Below are positions 521-42,801 of a stretch of DNA of 42,801 bases, piece by piece. The first letter of the stretch is position 1; each line of letters opens with the position of its first letter. The translations under genes and the position numbers were made by a program. Source of the DNA: a virus; the IMG/VR virus record IMGVR_UViG_3300045988_010248, positions 1 to 42,801 of that record. The stretch is one strand, 5' to 3'. Below the pieces are notes generated by a model. That model was not told the origin of the DNA and made no database searches. It saw only the letters and a program-made list of their open reading frames with translations.

Positions 521-2677
521 TTATTTATCGTTGTACTGTTGATCACCGCCAAAGGTAAGACTAGTGTACTTCTCCTGAAGCATTTCCTGTCTTTCAACTC
601 TATTGTAGATTTCATCGCCAATGCTTTCAACAAGGTTTGAAGCTTCAGCTTGATTCATTGAGAAGATAGAGTTACCCGCACGGTCAGCTACAGTAAGCAC
701 ATTACTAGAGTTGTCAAAACTCAATGTAACATTCTTATCGACATCCTCAAGGTATTTACTCGGAATCTCCTTCTTGATTCTAGCAAGAAGTTCTTTATCA
801 GGTACTGTGAGACCACTCCACCCAGTAAAAAATGAAGACGGAACTGAAGTGCCCATAAGGTTCTTAAAGGACTTATTGTACTCAGCCTCGGCCAAAGCTA
901 CAGCTTTCTCAGCAGTCTCACCCATACTTCTAAAAGCAAACGTTAAGGTAGTCACAAAAGCCTTGCCATTGTAGTCAATATCTTTAGAATCCCCTAACAT
1001 AGGATCTTGAATAGCCTTAATAGCCTTATCTCTGATCTTGGTGATTTCCTTAGTATTACCTTCATCCTTAAGCTTCTGAATCTCAGCCTTACCTCTAATG
1101 ATGTCTTCGATAGGTCTGCCTGAGTCCAACATGAGAGCCAATGCTCTAGCATCCTCTAAGTTCTTATCGGCACTAGAGCCAACAATGCTACTGAAATTAG
1201 AGGGGTCTGCTTTATACACTTCAATCAGGGTTTTTACAGAATCCTTAATTTCCTTAGGGAAAGTCTTACTGGTCATAAACTCCTTAGTGGAGTTATTGAG
1301 CCAGTTAAGTGCATCATTGGCCTGATTAGTGAAATGCTTTCTAGCAGGATTGTCCTTAAACGGAAGGTGTGGATTCTTAGCAATAGCTAACTGATCCTTG
1401 AAAGTGATTGCACCAGTATCTGCAAGGAACTGATAGGCTGTCTCGATATCCTTGTTAGTAATACCTGCGACATCTTTAGAAACTACAGGTTCACCTCGGG
1501 CAACCGACTGTACAAAAGCTCTAGACACTGAAGTCTTTAAAAGCTCATCCTGCTGTTTCTTAAGTGCTATCGCATTCTTCTTAGCATTAGCTATCTGAAC
1601 CTTTACTGCCGCATCGTAAGCCTTCTCAACGTCCTCGACTTCATCAGTAAGAAGACCACCTGACTCTTCAAACTTAGAGTTTCTAAGAGCAAGCAGTTCT
1701 GCCGCCTTACCATTGTTGGCCATAACGTTAAGGCCATTCTGGAAATCCAACTTAGCCTGAGCATCAGAAGCATACCTGAAATTAGCATTCTTAATGACAA
1801 GATTCTTATAGCCTTCTTCACCTAAGACCTGACCAAAAGTAACACCATCAAGGCCGGGGATTTCCCTATCCTTAAGGTCTCTAATAGTCTGACCTGCGTT
1901 AGGATTAGCAGAAAGAATCTCCAAGGTAGAAGACACCTTCTTAAGGGTATCCTCAGGCTTCTCGTGGGCACCTGTAGTGAGCGTCTGTTCGGCAAGCTTA
2001 CCAACAAGAAGATCTGCAGAGACATTCTTACTAGAGCTAATAGCGCTAAGTTCAGCGGCACTAGAGATCAAGTCCTGACTTCTCTGATAGGAATCCTCAA
2101 CAGTCTTCTGTCTCAGCATCATCTTAACACGCTGATTAGGAGAATCTGAGTAAATACCCTTATTGAAGAAGTAGTCATTATCAGCATAACCAAAGGCTTT
2201 AGATGCACCTGCAGATTGTTCCTTCATGTACCTGAAGAACTCTGCATCAACCTGTTCAGGGGCCATACCCTTGAACTCATTGGCATCTACACGAGCCTGA
2301 AAGTCCTGAGCAATATTACTGAAGAGAATCTTACCATGCTTCTGCTTAAGGGCGCTCATAGCAAGAGGGTCATCTTGGAATGGGACTTTACCCTCAGTCA
2401 TCTGTTGCTTGTACTCTTCAAGGGAGTGAGTCTGAAGGTACTCATCAGCAACACTTTCAGCTAATTCCTTACGTGCCTCATAGACACCCTGAATACCCTT
2501 AAAGGCCGCCTCAACAGCACCAAACCAGTCATCAGCTTCTTCAATAGTCTTCTGAGGTTTGATCGTAGGAGCAGTAGCTTTGGATTCCCCTAGCTTTGTC
2601 ATAGCAGAGTTAAAGTATCTCCACTGCCCCCACTCATTCGCAATAGATGAATTCCCGTCTGAATTTTTATAAGCCAT
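521..2677 (-). CDS. Internal virion (core) protein, T7 gp15-like by size and position
   Basis: 718-aa ORF between the gp14-like and gp16-like genes. No catalytic motif was recognised, so the call is positional. Confidence 0.7.
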   Translation of the reverse strand: MAYKNSDGNSSIANEWGQWRYFNSAMTKLGESKATAPTIKPQKTIEEADDWFGAVEAAFKGIQGVYEARKELAESVADEYLQTHSLEEYKQQMTEGKVPFQDDPLAMSALKQKHGKILFSNIAQDFQARVDANEFKGMAPEQVDAEFFRYMKEQSAGASKAFGYADNDYFFNKGIYSDSPNQRVKMMLRQKTVEDSYQRSQDLISSAAELSAISSSKNVSADLLVGKLAEQTLTTGAHEKPEDTLKKVSSTLEILSANPNAGQTIRDLKDREIPGLDGVTFGQVLGEEGYKNLVIKNANFRYASDAQAKLDFQNGLNVMANNGKAAELLALRNSKFEESGGLLTDEVEDVEKAYDAAVKVQIANAKKNAIALKKQQDELLKTSVSRAFVQSVARGEPVVSKDVAGITNKDIETAYQFLADTGAITFKDQLAIAKNPHLPFKDNPARKHFTNQANDALNWLNNSTKEFMTSKTFPKEIKDSVKTLIEVYKADPSNFSSIVGSSADKNLEDARALALMLDSGRPIEDIIRGKAEIQKLKDEGNTKEITKIRDKAIKAIQDPMLGDSKDIDYNGKAFVTTLTFAFRSMGETAEKAVALAEAEYNKSFKNLMGTSVPSSFFTGWSGLTVPDKELLARIKKEIPSKYLEDVDKNVTLSFDNSSNVLTVADRAGNSIFSMNQAEASNLVESIGDEIYNRVERQEMLQEKYTSLTFGGDQQYNDK

Positions 2678-3570
2678 TAGTAATAGTATCCTCTACGTCG
2701 TTGAGTCGCTTGTTGTACCATGTTGCCATAGTTAGCAATCTGGTTAAAGAACTTGAGTTGCTTGTCATAGGAATCCCAGTTAGCAATGACTCTATCCATG
2801 AAGCCCATCTTAGATCCCGCAGAAGTTGCCGCATTAGCAGTTGCCACACCTGTGGACGCATTAGAGGTAAGAGCGGCAACACCACCTGCACCTCCTGTAA
2901 CTTCAAGTGCAGAGACACCACCTGCGACATTAGCTCCAGTGATCGTAGGAGCGGCACTACTGATAGCATCAACACCTGCATTAGCCGCTAGCATACCACC
3001 CGTTTGACCGCCAATAGCGCCACCGACAGCACTAGCGGCACCTGCCGTAGCGGCACCCATAGCGGCACCCATAGCAACACCATTGACAAATTGACCGAAA
3101 GCCTGAGAACCATGGATGTAGGATGCACTAAGCTGATCCTTAGCTTGTTCAACTTCAGCCTTAGTAGAGATGTACAGAGCTTCCTTCTGTCCCCTGATGT
3201 TCCACACATCATTGAGATAAGCTTCCTTGTAGGAAGTCACCTGTCTAGCCGTCTGACCCCTAACAGTCTGCATGATCTTTTCTGAAGATCTACCTTCGGT
3301 GCCTGTTTCAGCTAACGCGGCTTCAAGCTGAGAGTTGTTCTGATATGAATTAAGGGACATCGTAAACAAGTCCACAAGGGCTGAGTCATATCTAGATCTC
3401 TCTTGTCTATCAAGAGCCGCTTGGTTATAGTTATAGTTCCTCTGCAGATACTCCATCTGCTTTAGGAAGGCTTTAGTCTTTTGCTTATTCTGTTTGGAGA
3501 TGCTATTAATTGATGAGCCACCACCGATGACACCACCAATAATAGCACCCGCAACAATCACGCTACTCAT
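2677..3570 (-). CDS. Internal virion protein, T7 gp14-like
   Basis: 297 aa with a hydrophobic Gly-rich N-terminus (MSSVIVAGAIIGGVIGGG) and a Gly/Ala-rich C-terminal half. It sits between the gp13-slot and gp15-like genes. Confidence 0.65.
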   Translation of the reverse strand: MSSVIVAGAIIGGVIGGGSSINSISKQNKQKTKAFLKQMEYLQRNYNYNQAALDRQERSRYDSALVDLFTMSLNSYQNNSQLEAALAETGTEGRSSEKIMQTVRGQTARQVTSYKEAYLNDVWNIRGQKEALYISTKAEVEQAKDQLSASYIHGSQAFGQFVNGVAMGAAMGAATAGAASAVGGAIGGQTGGMLAANAGVDAISSAAPTITGANVAGGVSALEVTGGAGGVAALTSNASTGVATANAATSAGSKMGFMDRVIANWDSYDKQLKFFNQIANYGNMVQQATQRRRGYYY

Positions 3571-3988
3571 TCTTTAGTAATTCCTCTCTATTAGTTGTTA
3601 AGAGAATCCACTCATCAGTAAACTCTTTCTCAGCTTCCTTAACATCCTTAGAGTCAGTCCTAAAACACATCGTGATGTAAGTATCAGTAATAGCCCTAAA
3701 TGCCTGTCTACGCCCTGCCTCAGCTTTGATAACGTTGTACCCCTCAAGTCTCCCGATGGTATTACCTAAGGTAACATAGCAATCCCCACTAACAATAACA
3801 GTAGTAGGGATCTTAACTAGAGCTCCAATAATAGCAACACCTTTAGGGACAAAACAAGTCCTATAGTAAACACCTTCGTGAATGAAATGCTCAAGAGGAA
3901 TGTCTACCTCATCACAATGTTCAATTGCATACTTAGCCATCTCACAAAGGATGTTATTCTGTTCTGGAGTGAGGGGTAGTAACGTCAT
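3563..3988 (-). CDS. Virion-assembly protein in the T7 gp13 slot
   Basis: 141-aa ORF with an ATGA-type overlap with the tail tube B stop. The call is positional only. Confidence 0.5.
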   Translation of the reverse strand: MTLLPLTPEQNNILCEMAKYAIEHCDEVDIPLEHFIHEGVYYRTCFVPKGVAIIGALVKIPTTVIVSGDCYVTLGNTIGRLEGYNVIKAEAGRRQAFRAITDTYITMCFRTDSKDVKEAEKEFTDEWILLTTNREELLKNE

Positions 3989-17978: not shown

Positions 17979-18063
17979 TGGTAGGTCGAAGGGGATTCGA
18001 ACCCCTATGCTCTAGGCGGCACATTTTAAGTGTGCTGAGTCTCACCAATTTCTCCATCGACCC
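17979..18063 (-). tRNA. tRNA-Leu (anticodon UAA), class II, CCA encoded
   Basis: Hand-folded, 85 nt. Acceptor GGGTCGA/TCGACCT (G1.U72); anticodon arm GCACA-CTTAAAA-TGTGC; long variable arm; T arm AGGGG-TTCGAAT-CCCCT; then A-CCA. Confidence 0.9.
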
Positions 18064-18573: not shown

Positions 18574-18661
18574 TGGCGGAAGTAGTAGGATTCGAACCTA
18601 CGAGCCATCTCTGACTGACGGTTTTCAAGACCGTTGCATTAAACCACTCTGCCATACTTCC
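18574..18661 (-). tRNA. tRNA-Ser (anticodon UGA), class II, CCA encoded
   Basis: Hand-folded, 88 nt. Acceptor GGAAGTA/TACTTCC; anticodon arm ACGGT-CTTGAAA-ACCGT; long variable arm; T arm GTAGG-TTCGAAT-CCTAC; discriminator G; CCA. Confidence 0.92.
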
Positions 18662-27813: not shown

Positions 27814-28317
27814 CTACTTAAGTTTGTACCCTGAAGTCTCTCTTTTGATTCCTTTAGTAGTGTTTCTAGAGCCAGTCTTAGTGTCTTCAGTAACGATTAT
27901 TCCACCGGTACCTACACGGCTAGTAACGAATCCATAGAAAGACTCCATAGACTCCTCTAACCACTCTTCAGTAAGTTCCTCAATTCCAGTGTCTGCATCG
28001 ACACCCATGAAGTCCACAAGGTACTTAACTCCGATTGCCAGAGCATCCAGACGGTCATCATGAACAAGGGCACCCCTGTCAGTAGTGATACGAGTAAGCT
28101 GATAAAAGCAAGCATATTTGTAATCCGATTCAGGGACTGTAGAGAAGTCATTCCTGATACATTCAGGCGTGACACACATTTTATGGTTAGAGATTACAGG
28201 TTCAAGAGTGTCGATGATTCGGAGTTCTTTTTGCCCTGAGGATTTAACTTCAGTTAATCCACAGTTAGGGTAAGTTTTCTTCAATACTGGCTCAAAGAGC
28301 TTAAGGTACATACCATC
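27814..28317 (-). CDS. Large terminase subunit, exon 3 (C-terminal nuclease part)
   Basis: Begins DGMYLKLFEPVL. ...FYQLTRITTDRGALVHDDRLDALAIGV parallels the T7 gp19 C-terminal region. 504 nt including the stop. Confidence 0.9.
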   Translation of the reverse strand, partial: DGMYLKLFEPVLKKTYPNCGLTEVKSSGQKELRIIDTLEPVISNHKMCVTPECIRNDFSTVPESDYKYACFYQLTRITTDRGALVHDDRLDALAIGVKYLVDFMGVDADTGIEELTEEWLEESMESFYGFVTSRVGTGGIIVTEDTKTGSRNTTKGIKRETSGYKLK

Positions 28318-29033
28318 CATTATGTTTACACAAGTTCGTTACGCTTATGCCATGGGGCTACACATTGCTGTGTAGATCGGACTATATCTTAACAATAGCT
28401 AATCTTCCAACCTCTTCTACCACGAATACCTTTATAGAGGAGGTTTCTTATGTTAGCTCTAGCAAATCCTAGAGCTTCTGCACATTCTTGTATTGAGTTA
28501 AACCTAAACTGTCTGCCGTCAAGGTGTTCTGCCAAGACACCTTTAGCGTTGTGGGCTACCTTACCGTATGCGTGGTTATTTTCACCCCACTGGTTCTCAA
28601 CACCCATGCCGCCCTCTTGAAGATTATAGGTATCTTGTCTAGAGGCAAATTCTTTATCTACCAGCAAGGACTCTACTTCTCTAGCTTCTTCCCTGTTGGA
28701 TAGGACTAACAGAACCTCTCTTTTAAAGTTTTCTCTACCGTACTTCTTTATAGCAGACTTAAGCACCCAACCACTACCTAAATATCCATCGTAAATATTA
28801 TCCGTAGAGTGTAGCCCTACGTATATTTTACCATTTATTAGGTTTGTTGTTTTATAGATTATATGAAATTTGTATTCGTGCATATTATTGTTATTTTAGC
28901 TATTGTTCCCACTTTTTCAGACCACTTGGTCTTACAATTAGTCTCTACACCTTCCTATTTCTAGGCTTGGCTCGGTATTGTCCCTGAGGGAGTTTCACCG
29001 AATTTAATGGGTTTTGTTTCGGCAATATGGTTT
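28318..29033 (-). mobile_element. Group I intron 2 (td-like, IA2-type) in the terminase gene
   Basis: The 5' exon TTCGGT pairs with the internal guide GCCGAA (U.G at the splice site). The intron ends ...ACATAATG. The core blocks AAATTCGGTG, GACAATACCGAGCC and AAGATATAGTCCG are shared with intron 1. The ORF lies between the GAAAAAGTGGG and GATATAGTC elements (P8 loop). Confidence 0.8.
28389..28883 (-). CDS. Intron-encoded GIY-YIG homing endonuclease
   Basis: 164 aa. IIYKTTNLINGKIYVGLH...YLGSG...GRENFKREVL matches the GIY-YIG module. The C-terminal FNSIQECAEALGFARANIRNLL region is helix-turn-helix-like. Confidence 0.85.
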   Translation of the reverse strand: MHEYKFHIIYKTTNLINGKIYVGLHSTDNIYDGYLGSGWVLKSAIKKYGRENFKREVLLVLSNREEAREVESLLVDKEFASRQDTYNLQEGGMGVENQWGENNHAYGKVAHNAKGVLAEHLDGRQFRFNSIQECAEALGFARANIRNLLYKGIRGRRGWKISYC

Positions 29034-29825
29034 ACCGAAGTTTCCTTCAATGACTACTTCATTGACTTTGTACTTCTTAGCTACCTTAGCTAACTTATTG
29101 AGAACTACATCTGAATAACCTCCTAAAAGACCCCCTACTTCCATGACGTAGATATACCCATTTAGGTAGTACAAGACTGCATAACCCGACTCATCACGTC
29201 CACGGCCCGACGGGTCTATACATAGGATCTTATGGGCATAGGGAACAACCTCATTGGATGAGGCATGATAGTAGAAGTAAGAGTCTCCCTTAAGGCCCAT
29301 CGTAGGACACTCGTCAACTGGAACCCTCTTAGAAGGCTCAGGGAGCCACGTGAGCTTCATCGGAGCCTCGTCTAAGGGGAACATACCTACGATGAGGTCA
29401 CGAAGCCGCAGAGGGTATTTATCGGCGTCTGAGAGGGTCGTATCAAGCATGAACTGCAGAGCGAAGCCTGCCTTACGATAAGATAGTTCACGCTTCTGTA
29501 GATCATCTTCAGAGAACCTAAGGGGGTCTGTAGGTTTACCTGCCCAATGTTTAGGATCCTTGTCGTACTTGTCAGCAATGATAGGGGCCAATCTATCGCC
29601 ATAGGAGGCTCTATGAGAGTCATCATAGGGGTACCTAGCGGGATAGATTACAGCCGTGTATCCGCGCTCCTGTAGCTCGTTATAGAGACTCATTTCATTC
29701 TGAGGGGTTCCCAGATACAGGATCTTCTTACCTGCACCTGGCTTTAGGACAGCGTCGAGCTCCTTCACGAGCTCGAATAGCTGATCCCTGAGCACCTGAG
29801 TAAATGAATTAGATGGAACTTCCAC
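29034..29825 (-). CDS. Large terminase subunit, exon 2
   Basis: Begins VEVPSNSFTQ...ILYLGTPQNEMSLYNEL and ends ...VVIEGNFG. 792 nt (264 codons). It parallels the T7 gp19 central region. Confidence 0.9.
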
Positions 29826-30605
29826 CTTTATGTTAAGGCAAGGGCGTTAGCCTTACCCCATCGTCTTTTATTTGAGTCCACTGCGTTTTCAGTAGCAGTA
29901 ACAAACTTACAATGATCCCTAGAGTAGAGTCCACAGTTGCCCTTCTTGATGTCCTTATCAAGGTGCATGCTAGAGTCCTTTTCCCATTCTTCATAGCCTT
30001 CTACCTCGTGAATAGTATTCAAGAAGGTAGTAAAGTTATGCCACCTAGGATCTACCTTACAGCCTACATAGCTAGTTTTGTAGTTACCATAAGCTCTCTT
30101 AAGCATGTTAGCCCACAGGTCATAGATCTTGCGGATGATACTATTAGAGCCTCTAGCAGGGATTCTAATAGGAGACCCAAGGAACCCTACACCATAGACC
30201 GTAGGTTCCATAAAGTCTTCAAACTTACCTGCCTTAATGTTGCAGGTCTGAACATCAATGACTGTACCAGTCTTGACAAACTGAATGACAGCCCTAGGAT
30301 GCTTAACTTTACCATTAGGAAGTTTCTGCTTCTTAGTTCTAGACAGGATCTTGATAAGGCCCTTAGGAGTTTCGTAAGTTTTGTTAATTTCGTACATAGT
30401 TATGTTCCTTATAATTGACGATGCTTCATATCTCTATGAAGACCAGACTATATCTTATACCAAAAGGTATCCCCATTTTTCGAGTCACTTGACCCTACAT
30501 AATAGTCGTTACACCTGCTAAATAGCTCGGCTCGGTATTGTCTTTCCTAGTTAGGACTGAGTTCCACCGAATTTAAGGGGTTTAGAGACGACATGGTTAA
30601 AGTTT
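29826..30605 (-). mobile_element. Group I intron 1 (td-like, IA2-type) in the terminase gene
   Basis: The 5' exon AGACGAT pairs with the internal guide GTCGTCT (U.G at the splice site). The intron ends ...ACATAAAG. The complete core (…GTAGGGTCAAGTGACTCGAAA…AAGATATAGTCTG…) precedes the ORF, which fills the 3' (P9) region. Confidence 0.8.
29828..30397 (-). CDS. Intron-encoded putative homing endonuclease (not GIY-YIG; family uncertain, HNH-associated type suspected)
   Basis: 189 aa with an AAGGAA RBS. VYGVGFLG...YDLWANMLKRAY...LDKDIKKGN..YSRDHCKFVTATEN resembles patterns I recall in phage HNH-type endonucleases, but no clean HNH motif is visible. The stop lies 2 nt before the 3' splice site. 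Confidence 0.5.
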   Translation of the reverse strand: MYEINKTYETPKGLIKILSRTKKQKLPNGKVKHPRAVIQFVKTGTVIDVQTCNIKAGKFEDFMEPTVYGVGFLGSPIRIPARGSNSIIRKIYDLWANMLKRAYGNYKTSYVGCKVDPRWHNFTTFLNTIHEVEGYEEWEKDSSMHLDKDIKKGNCGLYSRDHCKFVTATENAVDSNKRRWGKANALALT

Positions 30606-31088
30606 ATCGTCTGCGACAATGATGTCTGCACGGGAACCCGTAAGCTGACCTTTGATACCCACAGACTTAACTGAAGGCGAATGGTCGGGTTTAGCAGGGC
30701 CAACATCAAAAAGGTTCTGAGTGTCTCTCTGACCTTCACGAGCCTTCAGGTGATCCAAGAAAGGGAGTTCATTAATGATCTTCTTAATGAAGGTAGCATT
30801 AGCGTCAGCTCTTTCCTTATTAGCTGAGACAACCATAATCTTAGTCTGAGGGTCTCTCCAAAGACACCAAACCACGTAGGCACACGTAATGAATGACTTA
30901 GCTACCCCTCGGAAACCCATAAGGATCATACGGTCATTAGGGGGATCTTGGAGTAGCTTTGCAATATCAGACTGCAACGGCGTAGGAGACGGAAGACCAA
31001 TTGCACGCCACACAAGAGCAGTAAAGAGAGGAAAGCTCTCAAAATAAGGTAAAAGAAGCTCTGCTTCCTTAGTTGATGCTTGAGCCAT
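30606..31088 (-). CDS. Large terminase subunit, exon 1 (ATPase N-terminus)
   Basis: ATG at 31088 after [53 protein letters not shown]...[25 protein letters not shown] parallels T7 gp19. 483 nt (161 codons). Confidence 0.9.
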
Positions 31089-31523: not shown

Positions 31524-31921
31524 CAGCCACGCCTCATCAACCTCTCAAAGTTAGCCTTCTTAAAGTGATCACCCTTAAGGAGCTTACCATCTTCCCTATA
31601 GGTTGCACAGAAGTTACCTTCGTCATCCCACAGCTTGCTAGAATACTCCTTGATAAGCTCATTCATACCTACCTCAATGTCATAGCCACAGGCATTAGCA
31701 TACTGAACACAAACCCAAATGAGGTCGCAAAGTTCCTTAAAGTCCTCGTGGGTATTAGAATCCTCATCAAGGAGTTCATTGAACTCTTCACTGATGCACT
31801 TGCGATAAATAAGCTTAAGATCCGACTGGTCTCCCGAGTGGGTAATCTTGAACAAAACCTTCAGCTTCTCCTGAAGATCTCCAATAGACACGTTGGTTAC
31901 TCGATCCATAGTATTTTCCAT
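31523..31921 (-). CDS. MazG-like nucleotide pyrophosphohydrolase (putative)
   Basis: ATG at 31921 after AAAGGAAG. CISEEFNELLDE...FKELCDLIWVCVQYA fits the paired acidic-helix pattern of MazG-like proteins. It overlaps the nrdG 3' end by 107 nt. Confidence 0.6.
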   Translation of the reverse strand: MENTMDRVTNVSIGDLQEKLKVLFKITHSGDQSDLKLIYRKCISEEFNELLDEDSNTHEDFKELCDLIWVCVQYANACGYDIEVGMNELIKEYSSKLWDDEGNFCATYREDGKLLKGDHFKKANFERLMRRG

Positions 31922-32321
31922 TACATTTCTTCCTTTCAATAAACGGTTCTGTGATCAGCACATCCACATACTTAAGGAGTGCTAGATCTTTAATTTGTTC
32001 GTACTTTCTACCTGTCCACAACCAAATGGTCTTGGTAGGACACAACTGCTTCACCAGAGCTACTATATAGCTCACTGTGGGAATGTTATATGCCTCCAAG
32101 GGGTCACCCCCAAGGATACTCAGTCCATTGATCCACGGGCTTCTGAGAGCCTCCAAGAGGGTATCCATAGTCTCCTCAGTGAACTCCTTACCATAGTTCT
32201 TATCCCAAGCATCCTTGTTGAAACACCCCTTGCAATGGAGAGAGCATCCTGAGACAAACAAGGATACTCTCAGTCCATCACCATTAGTTGAATCACAGGT
32301 ATTCAAACCTGAATAATTCAT
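31815..32321 (-). CDS. nrdG: Anaerobic ribonucleotide reductase activating protein (radical SAM)
   Basis: 168 aa. The cluster CSLHCKGCFN (CxxxCxxC) follows DSTNGDGLRVSLFVSGC. Confidence 0.9.
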   Translation of the reverse strand: MNYSGLNTCDSTNGDGLRVSLFVSGCSLHCKGCFNKDAWDKNYGKEFTEETMDTLLEALRSPWINGLSILGGDPLEAYNIPTVSYIVALVKQLCPTKTIWLWTGRKYEQIKDLALLKYVDVLITEPFIERKKCNGKYYGSSNQRVYWRSSGEAEGFVQDYPLGRPVGS

Positions 32322-34417
32322 TACATGCTCTTCCTGTCTTTGATCTCTGCCATCTTGGCGTCATTCATTCGGGTCTTTCCATTGACATTACTGTAACCCA
32401 AGTACCCACAAACACGAGAAATAATAGAGAGGTTGTGAGACCCACAATGAGGACAGGTGTTACCAACATTAGTGCTATGCCTGCCACAATCCTCGCAATA
32501 AGCCGCATCAAAGTTGACACCTTGGTAGAAACCCATCGACATGCCTCTCTGAACAAGGGCTTTAACTGCATTGACCTTATCAGGGTTATCCACTCGTACA
32601 TACTGAATGTGACCCCCATTACACTTGTGAAAAAGTTCATATTCCTTATTCTGCTTCTCAAAAGGGGTTACATCTTCACTAACGTGGAGGTGAAAGGAGT
32701 TCGTGAAGTAATCTCCGAAGCGATTGTCTCCTGTATATTCATGGTATTGTCTAGCTTGAGTCCCACACAGAGATTCTGCAGGAGTACCATAAAGAGCATA
32801 AAGGTAGCCATCTTCTTTCTTAAATTCCTCAATCTTTTCGTTAATAAAATCAACAACAGTATTAGCAAAGCAGCTAGACTCTTTCAAAGTCTTGCCAGTA
32901 GCTAGGATAGACAACTCATTCAATGCAGTGATTCCAAAGGATGCAGTCATGTATTCTACAAGATCCCCAATCTCATCATCAGGATTCAAGTAGCCATTGT
33001 AAAGACCACCCTGAGTGAAACACATGGGGTTAGTACAAGCCTTAGTGTGACGAATCATGTCGTAACGTTTCTTAAGGAACTCACGGATGACCTGCATTCT
33101 ATCCTCAAGCACAACAAAGAAGTCTTCGCCTTCATTCTCAGCAACCTTCCAAATCAACGGAAGATTAAGAGAAACAGCACCAATGTTACAACGACCGATA
33201 GTAATGGCTTCGTTTGTCTTAGGGTCATGCCACTCAGTGAGATATGCACGGCAACCCATAGGGCTCGTGATAGCACCAGTGCGCTGATAGATATCGCCCA
33301 CCTTGCCATGGTTCAAGCTAAGGTAGTCAGGGTACATACACTTACTAGAACATTCCACAGCCTTATGGAAGAGTTCCTCATGATCCTCATCAGCTTCAAT
33401 CTTATCTTCATCATAGAGGAAGACGAGCTTGGGGAAGACAACTTGCTTACCACCATGGCCCTTCATACGGGTATCGAGGATAACTTCACCGATCAGCTTC
33501 ATGATGTCTCTGTCAAGATCATCCATCATGATGTCCCAAGTACCAAAAGTAAGCGTAGTAAACGCAAAGTCACCACGAGAACACGGGACAGTATTCAACT
33601 TCAACTCAAGAGACTGGAATCCCTGCTCAAGTTCACGCTTGAGATCCCCCATAGCCATTACATAGGATTCATTATACTCCATATTGCATTGTTCGAAATA
33701 CTTCCTAAAGGCGTTATCGTAGGTCTTCTCAGCATACGGAAGGAGAACCTTGTCGATCTCTGCAATGGTAAAACCGCCGAACTGCTGTGCAGTAGCTACA
33801 AGAGTAATGTCGCCGATAACCTGAAGGGCACTAAGGACACTCGTAGGTTCAGTGTACTTCACATTAGACATCTCAAAGCCACCCTTAAGGACATTGCCAA
33901 TGTCAAAGAGACAACAATTGAATGAATTAAAGATCATGTCTCTAAGGTCGTGGATGTAGATGTCACCACGCTTAACAAGCTCCTTCTCTTTCTTAGAAAG
34001 GTAGAACTGCTTGAACAATTCCTTAGTGAGGTACCCCTTAATGAGAGAACCCTTAGTAGAGATGAGGGAGCTATCAAAGTTAGCATTCTCACGGTCTCCC
34101 AAGAGAAGCGCCGTATCAGCTTCACTCTTGACAGACTCAAAGGCTTTAGCATAGGTGTTCTTGTAATCTCGATATTCCTGATAAGCCTTGCCTACTTCAG
34201 GGAGATATCTGTTAAGAGCATCAATAACGTGGTCATGAAGAGCCTCAGTAGTGACTTCAGTCTTGTGATAAAGGATGCCCTCGATGTAACCTTCGATCTG
34301 CCAAAGCTTCCATTCAGGATACTTAGCATTAGCTCTCTTAGTAGCCTTATCAATAGCTACCTTGATCTTATCAAAGCACCAGTCTTCACGAGTGCCGTCT
34401 TTCTTAATAACGTTCAT
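32321..34417 (-). CDS. nrdD: Anaerobic ribonucleoside-triphosphate reductase (class III)
   Basis: 698 aa. It has a C-terminal Zn site CEDCG...CPHCG, followed by the glycyl-radical motif SRVCGYLGY. Confidence 0.95.
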   Translation of the reverse strand: MNVIKKDGTREDWCFDKIKVAIDKATKRANAKYPEWKLWQIEGYIEGILYHKTEVTTEALHDHVIDALNRYLPEVGKAYQEYRDYKNTYAKAFESVKSEADTALLLGDRENANFDSSLISTKGSLIKGYLTKELFKQFYLSKKEKELVKRGDIYIHDLRDMIFNSFNCCLFDIGNVLKGGFEMSNVKYTEPTSVLSALQVIGDITLVATAQQFGGFTIAEIDKVLLPYAEKTYDNAFRKYFEQCNMEYNESYVMAMGDLKRELEQGFQSLELKLNTVPCSRGDFAFTTLTFGTWDIMMDDLDRDIMKLIGEVILDTRMKGHGGKQVVFPKLVFLYDEDKIEADEDHEELFHKAVECSSKCMYPDYLSLNHGKVGDIYQRTGAITSPMGCRAYLTEWHDPKTNEAITIGRCNIGAVSLNLPLIWKVAENEGEDFFVVLEDRMQVIREFLKKRYDMIRHTKACTNPMCFTQGGLYNGYLNPDDEIGDLVEYMTASFGITALNELSILATGKTLKESSCFANTVVDFINEKIEEFKKEDGYLYALYGTPAESLCGTQARQYHEYTGDNRFGDYFTNSFHLHVSEDVTPFEKQNKEYELFHKCNGGHIQYVRVDNPDKVNAVKALVQRGMSMGFYQGVNFDAAYCEDCGRHSTNVGNTCPHCGSHNLSIISRVCGYLGYSNVNGKTRMNDAKMAEIKDRKSM

Positions 34418-41900: not shown

Positions 41901-42801
41901 TGTTAATGGTCTTAGCCGCTTCAGTAGAACCTCCAATGCCATTAAAGACTTCTGAAGGTAATTCTTTACCGCCAAGCTCATAGTCTCTGATGATATTAGC
42001 ACGTCTAGCACTATCACCTACATAAGTACCTGCCTTACCCATACCCTTAAAGGCAAACTCAATACCTGCACCAAACATGCCACCAACAATCATGTCTTCA
42101 ATAAGGTCATGCTCGGCACCTGAGGTATAGGTTTCCAACTGGTTAGACACGGCACCCAAGACAGCGCCCGTGGCAACTCTACCTGCCATGCCATAAGCAC
42201 CCACTACAGGTACATAAGACAAAGGATCAGAGACACCACTACCAATAGAGGACATAAAGGATGAGAACATGTCAGCATTAGCTTCAGCCATCTTGTAATC
42301 AAGGTACTCGTTATTGACCTTGACACGCATCTTAACGTCATCCATACTGCCCGCACCATTGAGGACAGCTTGGTATCTATCGGAGTCATATCCGACCATC
42401 TGAAGGATCTCAGCTCTCTGATTAGCATCAGGCTTAAACTGTTCACCAAAGTAGTCCTGTGAGGCTCTACCCATGTTGATGCTATTGATAAACCAGTTAT
42501 GAGTCAAGCCAGAGAAGAAGCCGACATCAGGGGCTTCCGTTTGATCCGTAGCAGGATCATAGACATCAGACAAACTAGCCCAACGCTTGCTACGAAAACC
42601 CTGACCCAAGAGGGTACTCCTAGAGGTATTCGTTAGAAGCTGACTCTTGACTACATCCCTGTACTGATCGTTAGTGAGATCTTTAACATCAAAAGCCTCA
42701 AGAGAACTCTGAACACCTTGATCGTTGGGTTGCTCAGGTTTCTTTACTTCTGCTAGTGAACTAGCTTCTGCTAGTGAACTAGCTTCTGCTAGTGAACTAG
42801 C
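38926..42801 (-). CDS. gp16-like internal virion protein, C-terminal 1291 codons (the frame is open to the window end and joins 1..511)
   Basis: The frame stays open from 42609 up to 42801 (ASSLAE repeats, then VKKPEQPN...). GVSDPLSYVPVVGAYGMAG parallels T7 gp16 (GVDPLSYVPMVG). A long Lys/Glu coiled-coil segment is present. Confidence 0.9.
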   Translation of the reverse strand, partial: ASSLAEASSLAEASSLAEVKKPEQPNDQGVQSSLEAFDVKDLTNDQYRDVVKSQLLTNTSRSTLLGQGFRSKRWASLSDVYDPATDQTEAPDVGFFSGLTHNWFINSINMGRASQDYFGEQFKPDANQRAEILQMVGYDSDRYQAVLNGAGSMDDVKMRVKVNNEYLDYKMAEANADMFSSFMSSIGSGVSDPLSYVPVVGAYGMAGRVATGAVLGAVSNQLETYTSGAEHDLIEDMIVGGMFGAGIEFAFKGMGKAGTYVGDSARRANIIRDYELGGKELPSEVFNGIGGSTEAAKTINTFRENLEARLPVGSVMGVVKRLQNSESVDLFRKIFVDRGSGTKDAEGHYVATTFDGITAQEKLRDAEIKLTNFEVQARDHVGNLRKEGYSDVDVMDCFYRSIGGAKTKLDGNAEFEAFKKECLDMIAPYTTEGGVQDFFPRVADPVKVSDRIEAIQGTKGQRGDVVNTLTDQIAESLIKGYETNPAVKARIDQYYYDKVYKPKLEANKKEIEEHQKKAVPETVNEVKTIRKEVSRKSSDRFNRIRNIESNARDRVSEIQAKIDDLPDELKKAHSEIDKKVNAKLDEINEAYKKNVAKAKTYEDLEKAEAKKDKAIAELTEKEKLRKQEASDRIAKKKESYKKQIEETKAKAKESTDKLKKEVSDIQKKGAKEEATAIRNYKYDKAPLPLPEKPSQAEINQWVRENARSDAYGWVDQNQSNPSTLNLYGTGNTKYDPNVTRIPWDTTQRGASGVGIDDFRANPIEAIRTYVNKKTGDSIVQGLGFDSEQAFREHLNQLAVDEMNKSVGKGLKKEQIQRAFNLTADMIYGKYGSRADINTSWLGAVADVVRNLTFLSKNALMGVANIFEQGEAVKHYGAVQILRNTPLVRELFDNWTKNGMSNADVRHAQSLIFGLSVKNAGVFRDIAQESYERQLHRFQGNKAKAMLVAASESLAQASPFTKFLQSTENSIVEGSQGMFLGELIQYAHNKSLRPKGFLTKETLARNGVSVENFDKMLKLLRESTTVDKNGAISITNLQHLMSGDVMGLATLRRLGDYVAHEVIQKNTIGDTFLWEGSKRNPFMQMLLQFKTFAIRSYDKRIRKMMNRAAEGDALGQAYSIFLSTALGTVGAMANTCIGMAGMTEEQREEYLKQTVAYDKNEGVTMDTLFQVGINGVMRSSVLAFPALVASTAGYNPSVKTTADIDYFANKAETYQGFDADKYLRAMFPAYSTVASLANIGGYGKDVVMSSISDDYTEKQAEQARTRFAKSVRSFSNVPFFKWGVYNLMNEDY
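42747..42801. repeat. 18-bp tandem repeat, second copy of the window-start repeat block
   Basis: 42753-42801 equals 1-49 exactly. Confidence 0.95.

Follow-up and report, generated by a model that had tools for sequence, protein, structure and literature searches.

The large terminase gene (terL) of a T7-like gut phage, carried by IMG/VR record IMGVR_UViG_3300045988_010248 and analysed here over its whole length of 42,801 nucleotides (nt; the window), very probably gives rise to one pre-mRNA containing two td-like group I introns, each with its own homing endonuclease gene and both removed to yield a 592-codon frame. The gene lies on the minus strand as three exons, 31088-30606, 29825-29034, and 28317-27814, with inserts of 780 and 716 nt between them. 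Along terL the pieces measure 483, 780, 792, 716, and 504 nt, and the joined exons form one frame of 592 codons plus stop, exactly as calculated in an earlier sequence-only reading of this DNA.

The joined 592-residue protein aligns with T7 TerL (8dgc_E) over 560 residues (7-566; E 6e-197), ungapped across both junctions, ADD/VEV and NFG/DGM (slashes mark junctions). It also matches PDB 4bij (E 6e-175). This full-length comparison, which the sequence-only reading had proposed, bears out its view that three open reading frames (ORFs) are consecutive pieces of one T7 gp19-type terminase. The PF22530 (Terminase-T7_RNaseH-like) profile is cut by the second junction, with profile positions 1-65 in exon 2 and 63-108 in exon 3, and the joined protein is predicted to be a large terminase of gp19 type with ATPase and RNase H-like nuclease domains. 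The first break comes directly after a Walker B-type ADD, and the second separates catalytic motifs within the RNase H-like nuclease fold. The sequence-only reading had set intron 1 inside a Walker B motif as typical of homing-endonuclease targeting; both introns do lie in conserved motif-coding sequence and carry endonuclease ORFs, while the label 'Walker B' is based on an hhhhDD pattern and the alignment to T7 TerL, literature searches for a published assignment in T7 gp19 having given nothing usable.

Intron-less alleles confirm the boundaries. A faecal-virome contig, MT835695.1 (81-92% nt identity in terL), is colinear with the window and has an uninterrupted TerL, the alignment breaking exactly at 30606/29825 and 29034/28317. 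Additionally, 44 IMG/VR alleles are intron-less and continuous at exactly both positions, and the window exons share 91% protein identity with intron-less relatives. The junctions read ...GCAGACGAT/AAACTTT...ACATAAAG/GTGGAAG for intron 1 and ...AACTTCGGT/AAACCAT...ACATAATG/GATGGT for intron 2, giving after predicted splicing GCAGACGAT/GTGGAAG and AACTTCGGT/GATGGT, or in longer form GCAGACGATGTGGAAGTTCC and AACTTCGGTGATGGTATG. The first stop in the TerL frame lies 2 codons into intron 1 (...ADDKL, stop) and 10 codons into intron 2 (...GNFGKPYCRNKTH, stop), which rules out an intein.

The Rfam scan suggested earlier matched both inserts to Intron_gpI (RF00028), and these are the only non-tRNA Rfam hits within the 42.8 kb window. 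Intron 2 scores 52.1 bits (E 1.3e-11), above the gathering score of 50, and intron 1 scores 43.4 bits (E 5.5e-9), below it. Among kin of intron 1, an ORF-less homolog (locus L070) scores 48 bits and the intron at the same site in Klebsiella phage vB_KpnP_ZH4 scores 67.7 bits; scores of relatives at the two window sites reach 74 bits. The Rfam alignment of intron 1 extends past the intron as far as 30683, within exon 1, and so puts P1 in the wrong place; the P1 named in the sequence-only reading is the true one. Its exon strand is the last 7 nt of exon 1, AGACGAT (30612-30606), and that of intron 2 is the last 6 nt of exon 2, TTCGGT. The predicted guides, GTCGTCT and GCCGAA, are both present, pairing AGACGAU with GUCGUCU and UUCGGU(AA) with (UU)GCCGAA, in each case with U.G at the splice site. 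The second guide belongs to UUGCCGAA at intron positions 9-16 (GCCGAA at 11-16). Both pairings fold as P1 hairpins, as do those of all five intron families described below. Both inserts end in G as foreseen, and T at -1 with G as the last base is seen in all 42 introns with mapped boundaries, across five sites. The cores of introns 1 and 2 are ~70% identical from P3 to P9, with a terminal hairpin in both, followed by ACAUAA(A/U)G.

Covariation was assessed on 20 distinct mini-introns, made by deleting the ORFs from introns of families A, C, D, and E (named by insertion site, Table 1), aligned and compared with a hand-written structure of 56 pairs in 11 helices (P1, P3-P9, P7.1, and the terminal hairpin). 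An explicit structure was used because RNAalifold alone missed P1, P7, and P8, owing to the pseudoknot and the site-specific guides. The structure pairs 94.2% of cells, compared with 33-40% when partners are slid by 1-3 columns. Changes on both sides occur in 27 of the 56 pairs, with P4 and P7 invariant, and 0/500 shuffles reach the observed covariation score. A P3-P9 core with the P3/P7 pseudoknot is thus kept by compensatory changes, the hallmark sought for a group I intron. Subgroup IA2 is recognised by P7.1/P7.2, and one covarying hairpin (P7.1) is seen between P7 and P3'. The terminal hairpin of intron 1 is kept in the 238-nt ORF-less L070 intron, has 5/6 pairs changed on both sides, and is homologous to the td 3' end. 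The covariance model, the P1, U.G, and omega-G anatomy, the empty sites, and the compensatory changes together support the assignment of both inserts to group I introns, as the sequence-only reading had it.

The likeness to the T4 td intron put forward in the sequence-only reading also holds, with positions 108-236 (129 nt) of the ORF-less form of intron 1 being ~71% identical to the td 3' half. The aligned part covers P7.1, P3', P8, J8/7-P7', P9, the terminal hairpin, and ACAUAAUG, in td of T4, T6, RB5, and many others. T4 td and the window introns share U.G at the 5' splice site, a last base G, and an early in-frame stop, and intron 2, like T4 td (I-TevI), has a putative GIY-YIG endonuclease gene in a peripheral loop. 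In contrast to T4 td (IA2), where the ORF is in P6a, the host gene is terL, intron 1 has its ORF after P9 and intron 2 in P8, P2 is not recognisable in either window intron, and splicing is predicted.

The two intron ORFs are distinct. The ORF of intron 1 ends with a TAA 2 nt short of the 3' splice site and matches PHROG 2081 'HNH endonuclease' (E 7e-40), with no match in Pfam, NCBIfam, or PDB sequence searches. Its 120 database homologs, almost all unnamed, mark a widespread phage protein family that lacks a solved structure and has invariant D147, K148, D149, and N171 (an L-D-K-D...N signature); H145 is not invariant. A confident AlphaFold (AF2) model (predicted local distance difference test 91.4) places a beta-barrel at the N-terminus, helices in the middle, and a beta-beta-alpha-like fold at the C-terminus. 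Foldseek gave no PDB match at E<=0.001, a weak one to the N-terminal barrel being found above that cutoff, and matched 63 predicted viral structures, most of them uncharacterised. We do not endorse the 'HNH' label of PHROG, as a conserved His, a Pfam or NCBIfam HNH match, and a PDB nuclease are all missing. The ORF of intron 2, whose final codons double as the 3' strand of P8, matches PHROG 314 'homing endonuclease' (E 2e-34). Its matches to Pfam GIY-YIG (18.5 bits, cutoff 22.6), I-HmuI_NUMOD-like (24.4, cutoff 27), and TIGR01453, a group I intron endonuclease model (47.4 bits, cutoff 56, E 2e-12), all lie below curated cutoffs, the first two being weak, yet are mutually consistent.

The introns are polymorphic in the population. 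An IMG/VR scan gave 80 related TerL loci, on each of which TerL was mapped, and the 80 coding sequences were aligned with fast MAFFT. Splice boundaries were set by aligning each locus at the DNA level with its closest intron-less allele and anchoring on motifs; a gap-free brute-force search was discarded, having misplaced junctions where relatives have indels. Introns occupy five sites, numbered on the spliced TerL, with Rfam group I matches of 29-74 bits at all five, and 4/5 sites fall in recognisable catalytic motifs. The alleles comprise 44 with no intron, 15 with A, 7 with D, 6 with C, 4 with B, and one each with E, C+D, A+E, and A+D, the last being the window.

Flanking exon sequence follows intron presence at site A, where 17 related alleles carry the intron. 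Position -1, the third position of an Asp codon, reads T in every intron-bearing allele (17/17) and C in every intron-less one (63/63; Fisher test 1e-17, relatedness not corrected for). AGACGAT, the P1 exon strand, is found in 17/17 intron-bearing and 0/63 intron-less alleles, and GTGGA at the start of the 3' exon in 17/17 and 7/63. Intron-less alleles read GCAGACGAC/GTTGAGGT across site A and AACTTYGGT/GATGG across site D. The 20-mer GCAGACGAT/GTGGAAGTTCC is uninterrupted in two more distant intron-less T7-like phages (52-68% TerL identity); the intron-type flank is thus native elsewhere, which fits co-conversion during homing, and precise intron loss in those two phages may also account for it. 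At site D, TTCGGT is found in 9/9 intron-bearing and 30/71 intron-less alleles, some intron-less flanks being identical to intron-bearing ones.

The site-D introns form a decay series of 716, 429, 359, 356, 310, and 215 nt, in which the putative GIY-YIG ORF in P8 is internally deleted and the ribozyme stays intact. At site A, the 238-nt ORF-less form keeps the last ~40 nt of the ORF, corresponding to the terminal hairpin. Stages of ORF decay include a truncated 169-amino-acid (aa) ORF in the site-A intron of L049 and internal deletions sparing both ORF ends in the site-D introns of L062-L064 and L080. Decaying ORFs beside intact ribozymes are what the intron/endonuclease life-cycle model predicts. 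Intact ORFs, presence and absence at an identical site, and apparently co-converted flanks are found together, as would be expected of mobile introns.

The window terL is itself a mosaic. Exons 1 and 3 are nearest to L003/L007/L008 (91-94%, compared with 81-83% in exon 2), and exon 2 is nearest to L047/L016/L014 (92-94%), the nearest lineage changing 24-50 nt downstream of the first junction and ~70-150 nt downstream of the second. An identical exon-2 ORF is present on 6 contigs of 20-50 kb, one of which, L086, matches the window at 100% identity across 6,822 nt. An assembly chimera was rejected because this 6.8 kb recurs unchanged in a Logan contig assembled independently, and dozens of contigs contain the same introns. 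The Logan contig is L086 itself (ERR1620282, 42,757 nt), its identity covering the 6.8 kb compared. The last 30 bases of the window (42772-42801) are identical to positions 2-31, which would be expected of a complete genome assembled as a closed circle. The GenBank phage collection holds 88-96% identical fragments from a Mexican faecal virome and lacks the phage itself.

In the proposed mechanism, terL would be transcribed as one pre-mRNA with two related td-like introns of subgroup IA type. Each intron would fold into a P1-P9 ribozyme whose guide pairs with the last 6-7 exon bases, presenting U.G at the 5' splice site; guanosine attack followed by exon ligation after the terminal G would produce the 592-codon TerL frame. 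The stops 2 and 10 codons into the introns would keep ribosomes out of the ribozyme cores. In mixed infection, the endonucleases would cleave TerL alleles without an intron at their conserved target site, and repair of the cut would transfer the intron with flanking exon sequence to the recipient (homing). The anatomy, exact empty sites, covariation, presence/absence polymorphism, flank association, and exon mosaicism are observed, and from them we infer catalysis, endonuclease activity and specificity, and timing.

Several points weigh against this interpretation. Intron 1 narrowly misses the Rfam gathering score, by 6.6 bits. The covariation constructs were hand-trimmed and the structure was derived from these same sequences; moreover, the constructs come from four intron families, so that many 'double changes' represent few between-family events and not many independent ones. 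P10 spans just 4-5 bp and is not kept in every site-D variant. The intron 1 ORF is a probable homing endonuclease of unverified catalytic class. Some Bastillevirinae introns splice in vivo and not in vitro (PMC11878797), hence 'self'-splicing may need helpers.

The low Rfam score of intron 1 would also suit decayed, non-splicing relics, in which case terL would be a pseudogene and the phage defective or helper-dependent. Against this, every helix of the core is intact and maintained through compensatory changes, both endonuclease ORFs and the three exons are open with the protein identity to intron-less relatives given above, and the same introns occur in many near-complete genomes of ~42 kb. 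Additionally, the -1 T and the P1 strand are strictly kept solely in intron-bearing alleles, implying selection for splicing. We regard relics as highly improbable.

Slightly less credible still is a fractured gene, with the pieces translated separately into a non-covalent terminase and the inserts serving as mere endonuclease cassettes. GTG stands at the first codon of exon 2, an ATG arises from the last three intron bases before exon 3, and GenBank records list such pieces as separate coding sequences (CDSs), but neither internal start has a spaced Shine-Dalgarno sequence, and the protein would be broken after the Walker B-type ADD and between RNase H-like catalytic motifs. The -1 T/C difference is synonymous (GAT/GAC) and therefore not a protein-level constraint, which counts against separate translation. 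A fractured gene leaves the conserved ribozyme structure unexplained; dead introns and a fractured gene alike fail to account for the conserved ribozyme or the synonymous -1 constraint.

Terminase genes interrupted by introns are known, and the verdict 'unusual' in the sequence-only reading overstated the case. The same intron core occurs inside annotated TerL genes of cultured Autographiviridae. In Escherichia phage K1E, a T7-like TerL is split as 40A, 40.5 'putative homing endonuclease', and 40B; the insert, described as an inferred intron, belongs to group I and shares the core family of the window introns (Rfam 63.6 bits), but it is single and lies at site C (DPAGK/), not at the window sites. 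For Lelliottia phage phD2B, Nowicki et al. 2014 inferred that TerL contains an intron with an endonuclease gene, noting K1E as the sole other case in the group (PMC4246154); like the window, phD2B has an Autographiviridae TerL interrupted by an insert with a homing endonuclease gene, but with a single intron. Ralstonia phage BOESR1 has a TerL intron at site D. Klebsiella phage vB_KpnP_ZH4 (PV872879) has a doubly interrupted T7-like TerL with two Intron_gpI matches (67.7 and 59.6 bits); its first intron shares the Walker B site with window intron 1 (LLIPDD/IETT). It differs in that its second intron lies at site C not D, its TerL is ~33% identical, and its first intron lacks an annotated ORF. 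In the ZH4 record (L084, PV872879.1), positions 936-3938 list 'putative DNA maturase B' as three CDSs plus a hypothetical protein, the introns, at the Walker B and DPxG sites, being unannotated.

Outside this group, Bastillevirinae TerL genes contain 2-3 group I introns, with splicing demonstrated by reverse transcription PCR and nanopore sequencing and including exon skipping (PMC11878797). These TerL and polymerase introns, together with Twort orf142, resemble the window in placing several group I introns in one essential phage gene, and the Bastillevirinae endonucleases include PHROG 2081, like the intron 1 ORF. Conversely, they belong to large Bacillus and Staphylococcus myoviruses with unrelated TerL families, and splicing in the window is predicted. 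An intron in a different gene, that for DNA polymerase, is attributed to the T7-like phages PhiI and W31 (Bonocora and Shub 2004, as cited in PMC11878797). Literature searches returned no paper on a doubly interrupted TerL in a T7-like phage, nor on five-site polymorphism.

The Bastillevirinae introns that splice in vivo only, and the exon skipping in SIOphi TerL (PMC11878797), raise a variant in which the window introns splice in vivo but not autonomously, relying on upstream-exon translation or an RNA chaperone of host or phage; as one transcript contains two similar ribozymes, some molecules would also skip exon 2 by joining the 5' site of intron 1 to the 3' site of intron 2. The P10 guide of intron 1, CCAU, can pair with AUGG (+2..+5) of exon 3 besides GUGG of exon 2, and an exon-skipped product (GCAGACGAT joined to GATGGTATG) would be in frame (483 + 504 nt). 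However, no sequence feature demands helpers or skipping, and TerL minus aa 162-425 would lose the first nuclease motifs along with most of its ATPase lid. This variant is improbable, if less so than the relics and the fractured gene, and all three alternatives are unlikely beside two spliced, mobile introns.

Comparison across sites bears on the origin of the introns. The cores at A, C, D, and E are homologous (59-70% identical), with a guide matched to its own exon at each site, and the endonuclease genes differ, as do the peripheral positions that they occupy. Directly before the junction, sites A and E have an identical 6-nt target, GACGAU, in both cases as Asp-Asp codons, and their introns carry homologous endonucleases of an uncharacterised family (the intron 1 ORF being 35% identical to that at site E), the footprint expected if introns switch sites by reverse splicing. 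A recent transposition from A to E is unsupported, the A and E cores being the least similar pair (58.8%). We tentatively suggest, as a possibility we rate as rather doubtful, that terL of this gut T7-like clade may offer a single lineage of td-like ribozymes a landing pad with several sites, with site switching by guide-directed reverse splicing and later retargeting of the endonuclease, and that the introns may delimit recombination blocks and so act as allele-exclusion devices between co-infecting phages. Site B (L054/L055/L074/L075) holds a fifth, different type, a phase-2 insertion with just 28.8 bits in Rfam and a classic HNH ORF near the 5' end (PF01844, E 1.6e-8). Its P3-P6 region seems to resemble that of the td intron.

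Table 1. Coordinates of terL exons, introns, ribozyme elements, and ORFs in the window, and intron insertion sites on the spliced TerL
Feature	Position	Strand	Remarks
TerL exon 1	30606..31088	-	483 nt, aa 1-161, N-terminal ATPase part; aligns from 8dgc residue 8 onwards
TerL exon 2	29034..29825	-	792 nt, aa 162-425, VEVPSNS...VVIEGNFG; PF22530 profile 1-65
TerL exon 3	27814..28317	-	504 nt with stop, aa 426-592, DGMYLK...; rest of RNase H-like nuclease domain and C-terminus
Intron 1, td-like group I, site A	29826..30605	-	780 nt; last base G at 29826; Rfam; empty site in MT835695.1
Intron 1 ribozyme core	30424..30596	-	helix coordinates (P3 3' strand placed by hand); covariation supports helices
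Intron 1 P10 guide CCAT	30596-30593	-	
Intron 1 P1 guide GTCGTCT	30592-30586	-	intron positions 14-20
Intron 1 P3	30580-30577 with 30474-30471	-	
Intron 1 P4	30570-30565 with 30537-30532	-	
Intron 1 P5	30561-30540	-	
Intron 1 P6	30531-30513	-	
Intron 1 P7	30507-30503 with 30450-30446	-	
Intron 1 P7.1	30495-30482	-	
Intron 1 P8	30470-30457	-	
Intron 1 P9	30441-30424	-	
Intron 1 endonuclease ORF	29828..30397	-	189 aa; lies 3' of P9, with AAGGA ahead of it at 30410-30406
Intron 1 3'-terminal hairpin	29837..29857	-	GGTAAGG-CTAACGC-CCTTGCC; within endonuclease ORF end; then TTAACATAAAG and 3' splice site
Intron 2, td-like group I, site D	28318..29033	-	716 nt; last base G at 28318; Rfam; exact empty site
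Intron 2 5' core	28896..29031	-	Rfam, helix mapping, covariation
Intron 2 P10 guide ACCAT	29031-29027	-	
Intron 2 P1 guide TTGCCGAA	29025-29018	-	
Intron 2 P3	29011-29008 with 28911-28908	-	
Intron 2 P4	29001-28996 with 28977-28972	-	
Intron 2 P5	28992-28980	-	
Intron 2 P6	28971-28949	-	
Intron 2 P7	28943-28939 with 28384-28380	-	3' strand TAGTC (28384-28380) placed by hand
Intron 2 P7.1	28932-28919	-	
Intron 2 P8	28905-28896 with 28402-28393	-	5' and 3' strands
Intron 2 endonuclease ORF	28389..28883	-	164 aa; putative GIY-YIG and NUMOD-like; in P8 loop
Intron 2 3' core	28318..28402	-	Rfam, helix mapping, covariation
Intron 2 P9	28375-28358	-	
Intron 2 terminal hairpin	28349-28329	-	
Intron 2 end ACATAATG	28325-28318	-	
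ORF 167 aa	31100-30597	-	carries exon 1
ORF 189 aa	30397-29828	-	inside intron 1
ORF 273 aa	29825-29004	-	carries exon 2
ORF 164 aa	28883-28389	-	inside intron 2
ORF 168 aa	28320-27814	-	carries exon 3
Site A	after aa 161		IIVADD/VEV
Site B	within codon 181		LFELV/KE
Site C	after aa 370		DPSGRG/KDE
Site D	after aa 425		EGNFG/DGM
Site E	after aa 512		VHDD/RLDA

The anaerobic ribonucleotide reductase genes nrdD (32321-34417) and nrdG (31815-32321) lie on the minus strand just upstream of terS/terL. The window nrdD is intact (698 aa), and NrdD is interrupted in 22 related loci (e.g. L081, L010, L035, and L065) at about three sites, after aa ~388, ~547, and ~672. The one insert checked, L081 474-734, gives an Intron_gpI match of 46 bits. 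In the marine Chosvirus KM23C739 (L002, KT997847.1), two strong Intron_gpI matches (77-78 bits), 2234-2414 and 2943-3123, fall at and between two 'capsid protein' CDSs. The major capsid gene of this T7-like phage therefore appears to be interrupted by group I introns that lack ORFs, are unannotated, and share the core family. The window genome is T7-like with 44% G+C, and its minus strand carries transfer RNA (tRNA) genes at 17979-18063 and 18574-18661, for Leu(TAA) and Ser(TGA).

For annotation, a T7-like TerL that gene callers split into 2-3 'terminase' or 'maturase B' CDSs plus a 'hypothetical protein' is an intron-containing gene, as in the window, ZH4, K1E, and BOESR1. TerL is a standard phylogenetic and detection marker for tailed phages, and unrecognised introns therefore truncate the marker. 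The window is a new example of a known phenomenon, not a new kind of thing, adding population context and not mechanism, and it does not change knowledge of how group I introns work. The clade itself forms a dense natural experiment in homing, with five sites in terL, about three more in nrdD, and full, decaying, and ORF-less forms together, alongside synonymous target-site differences and recombination breakpoints beside introns, making the intron/endonuclease life cycle and site switching addressable within it.

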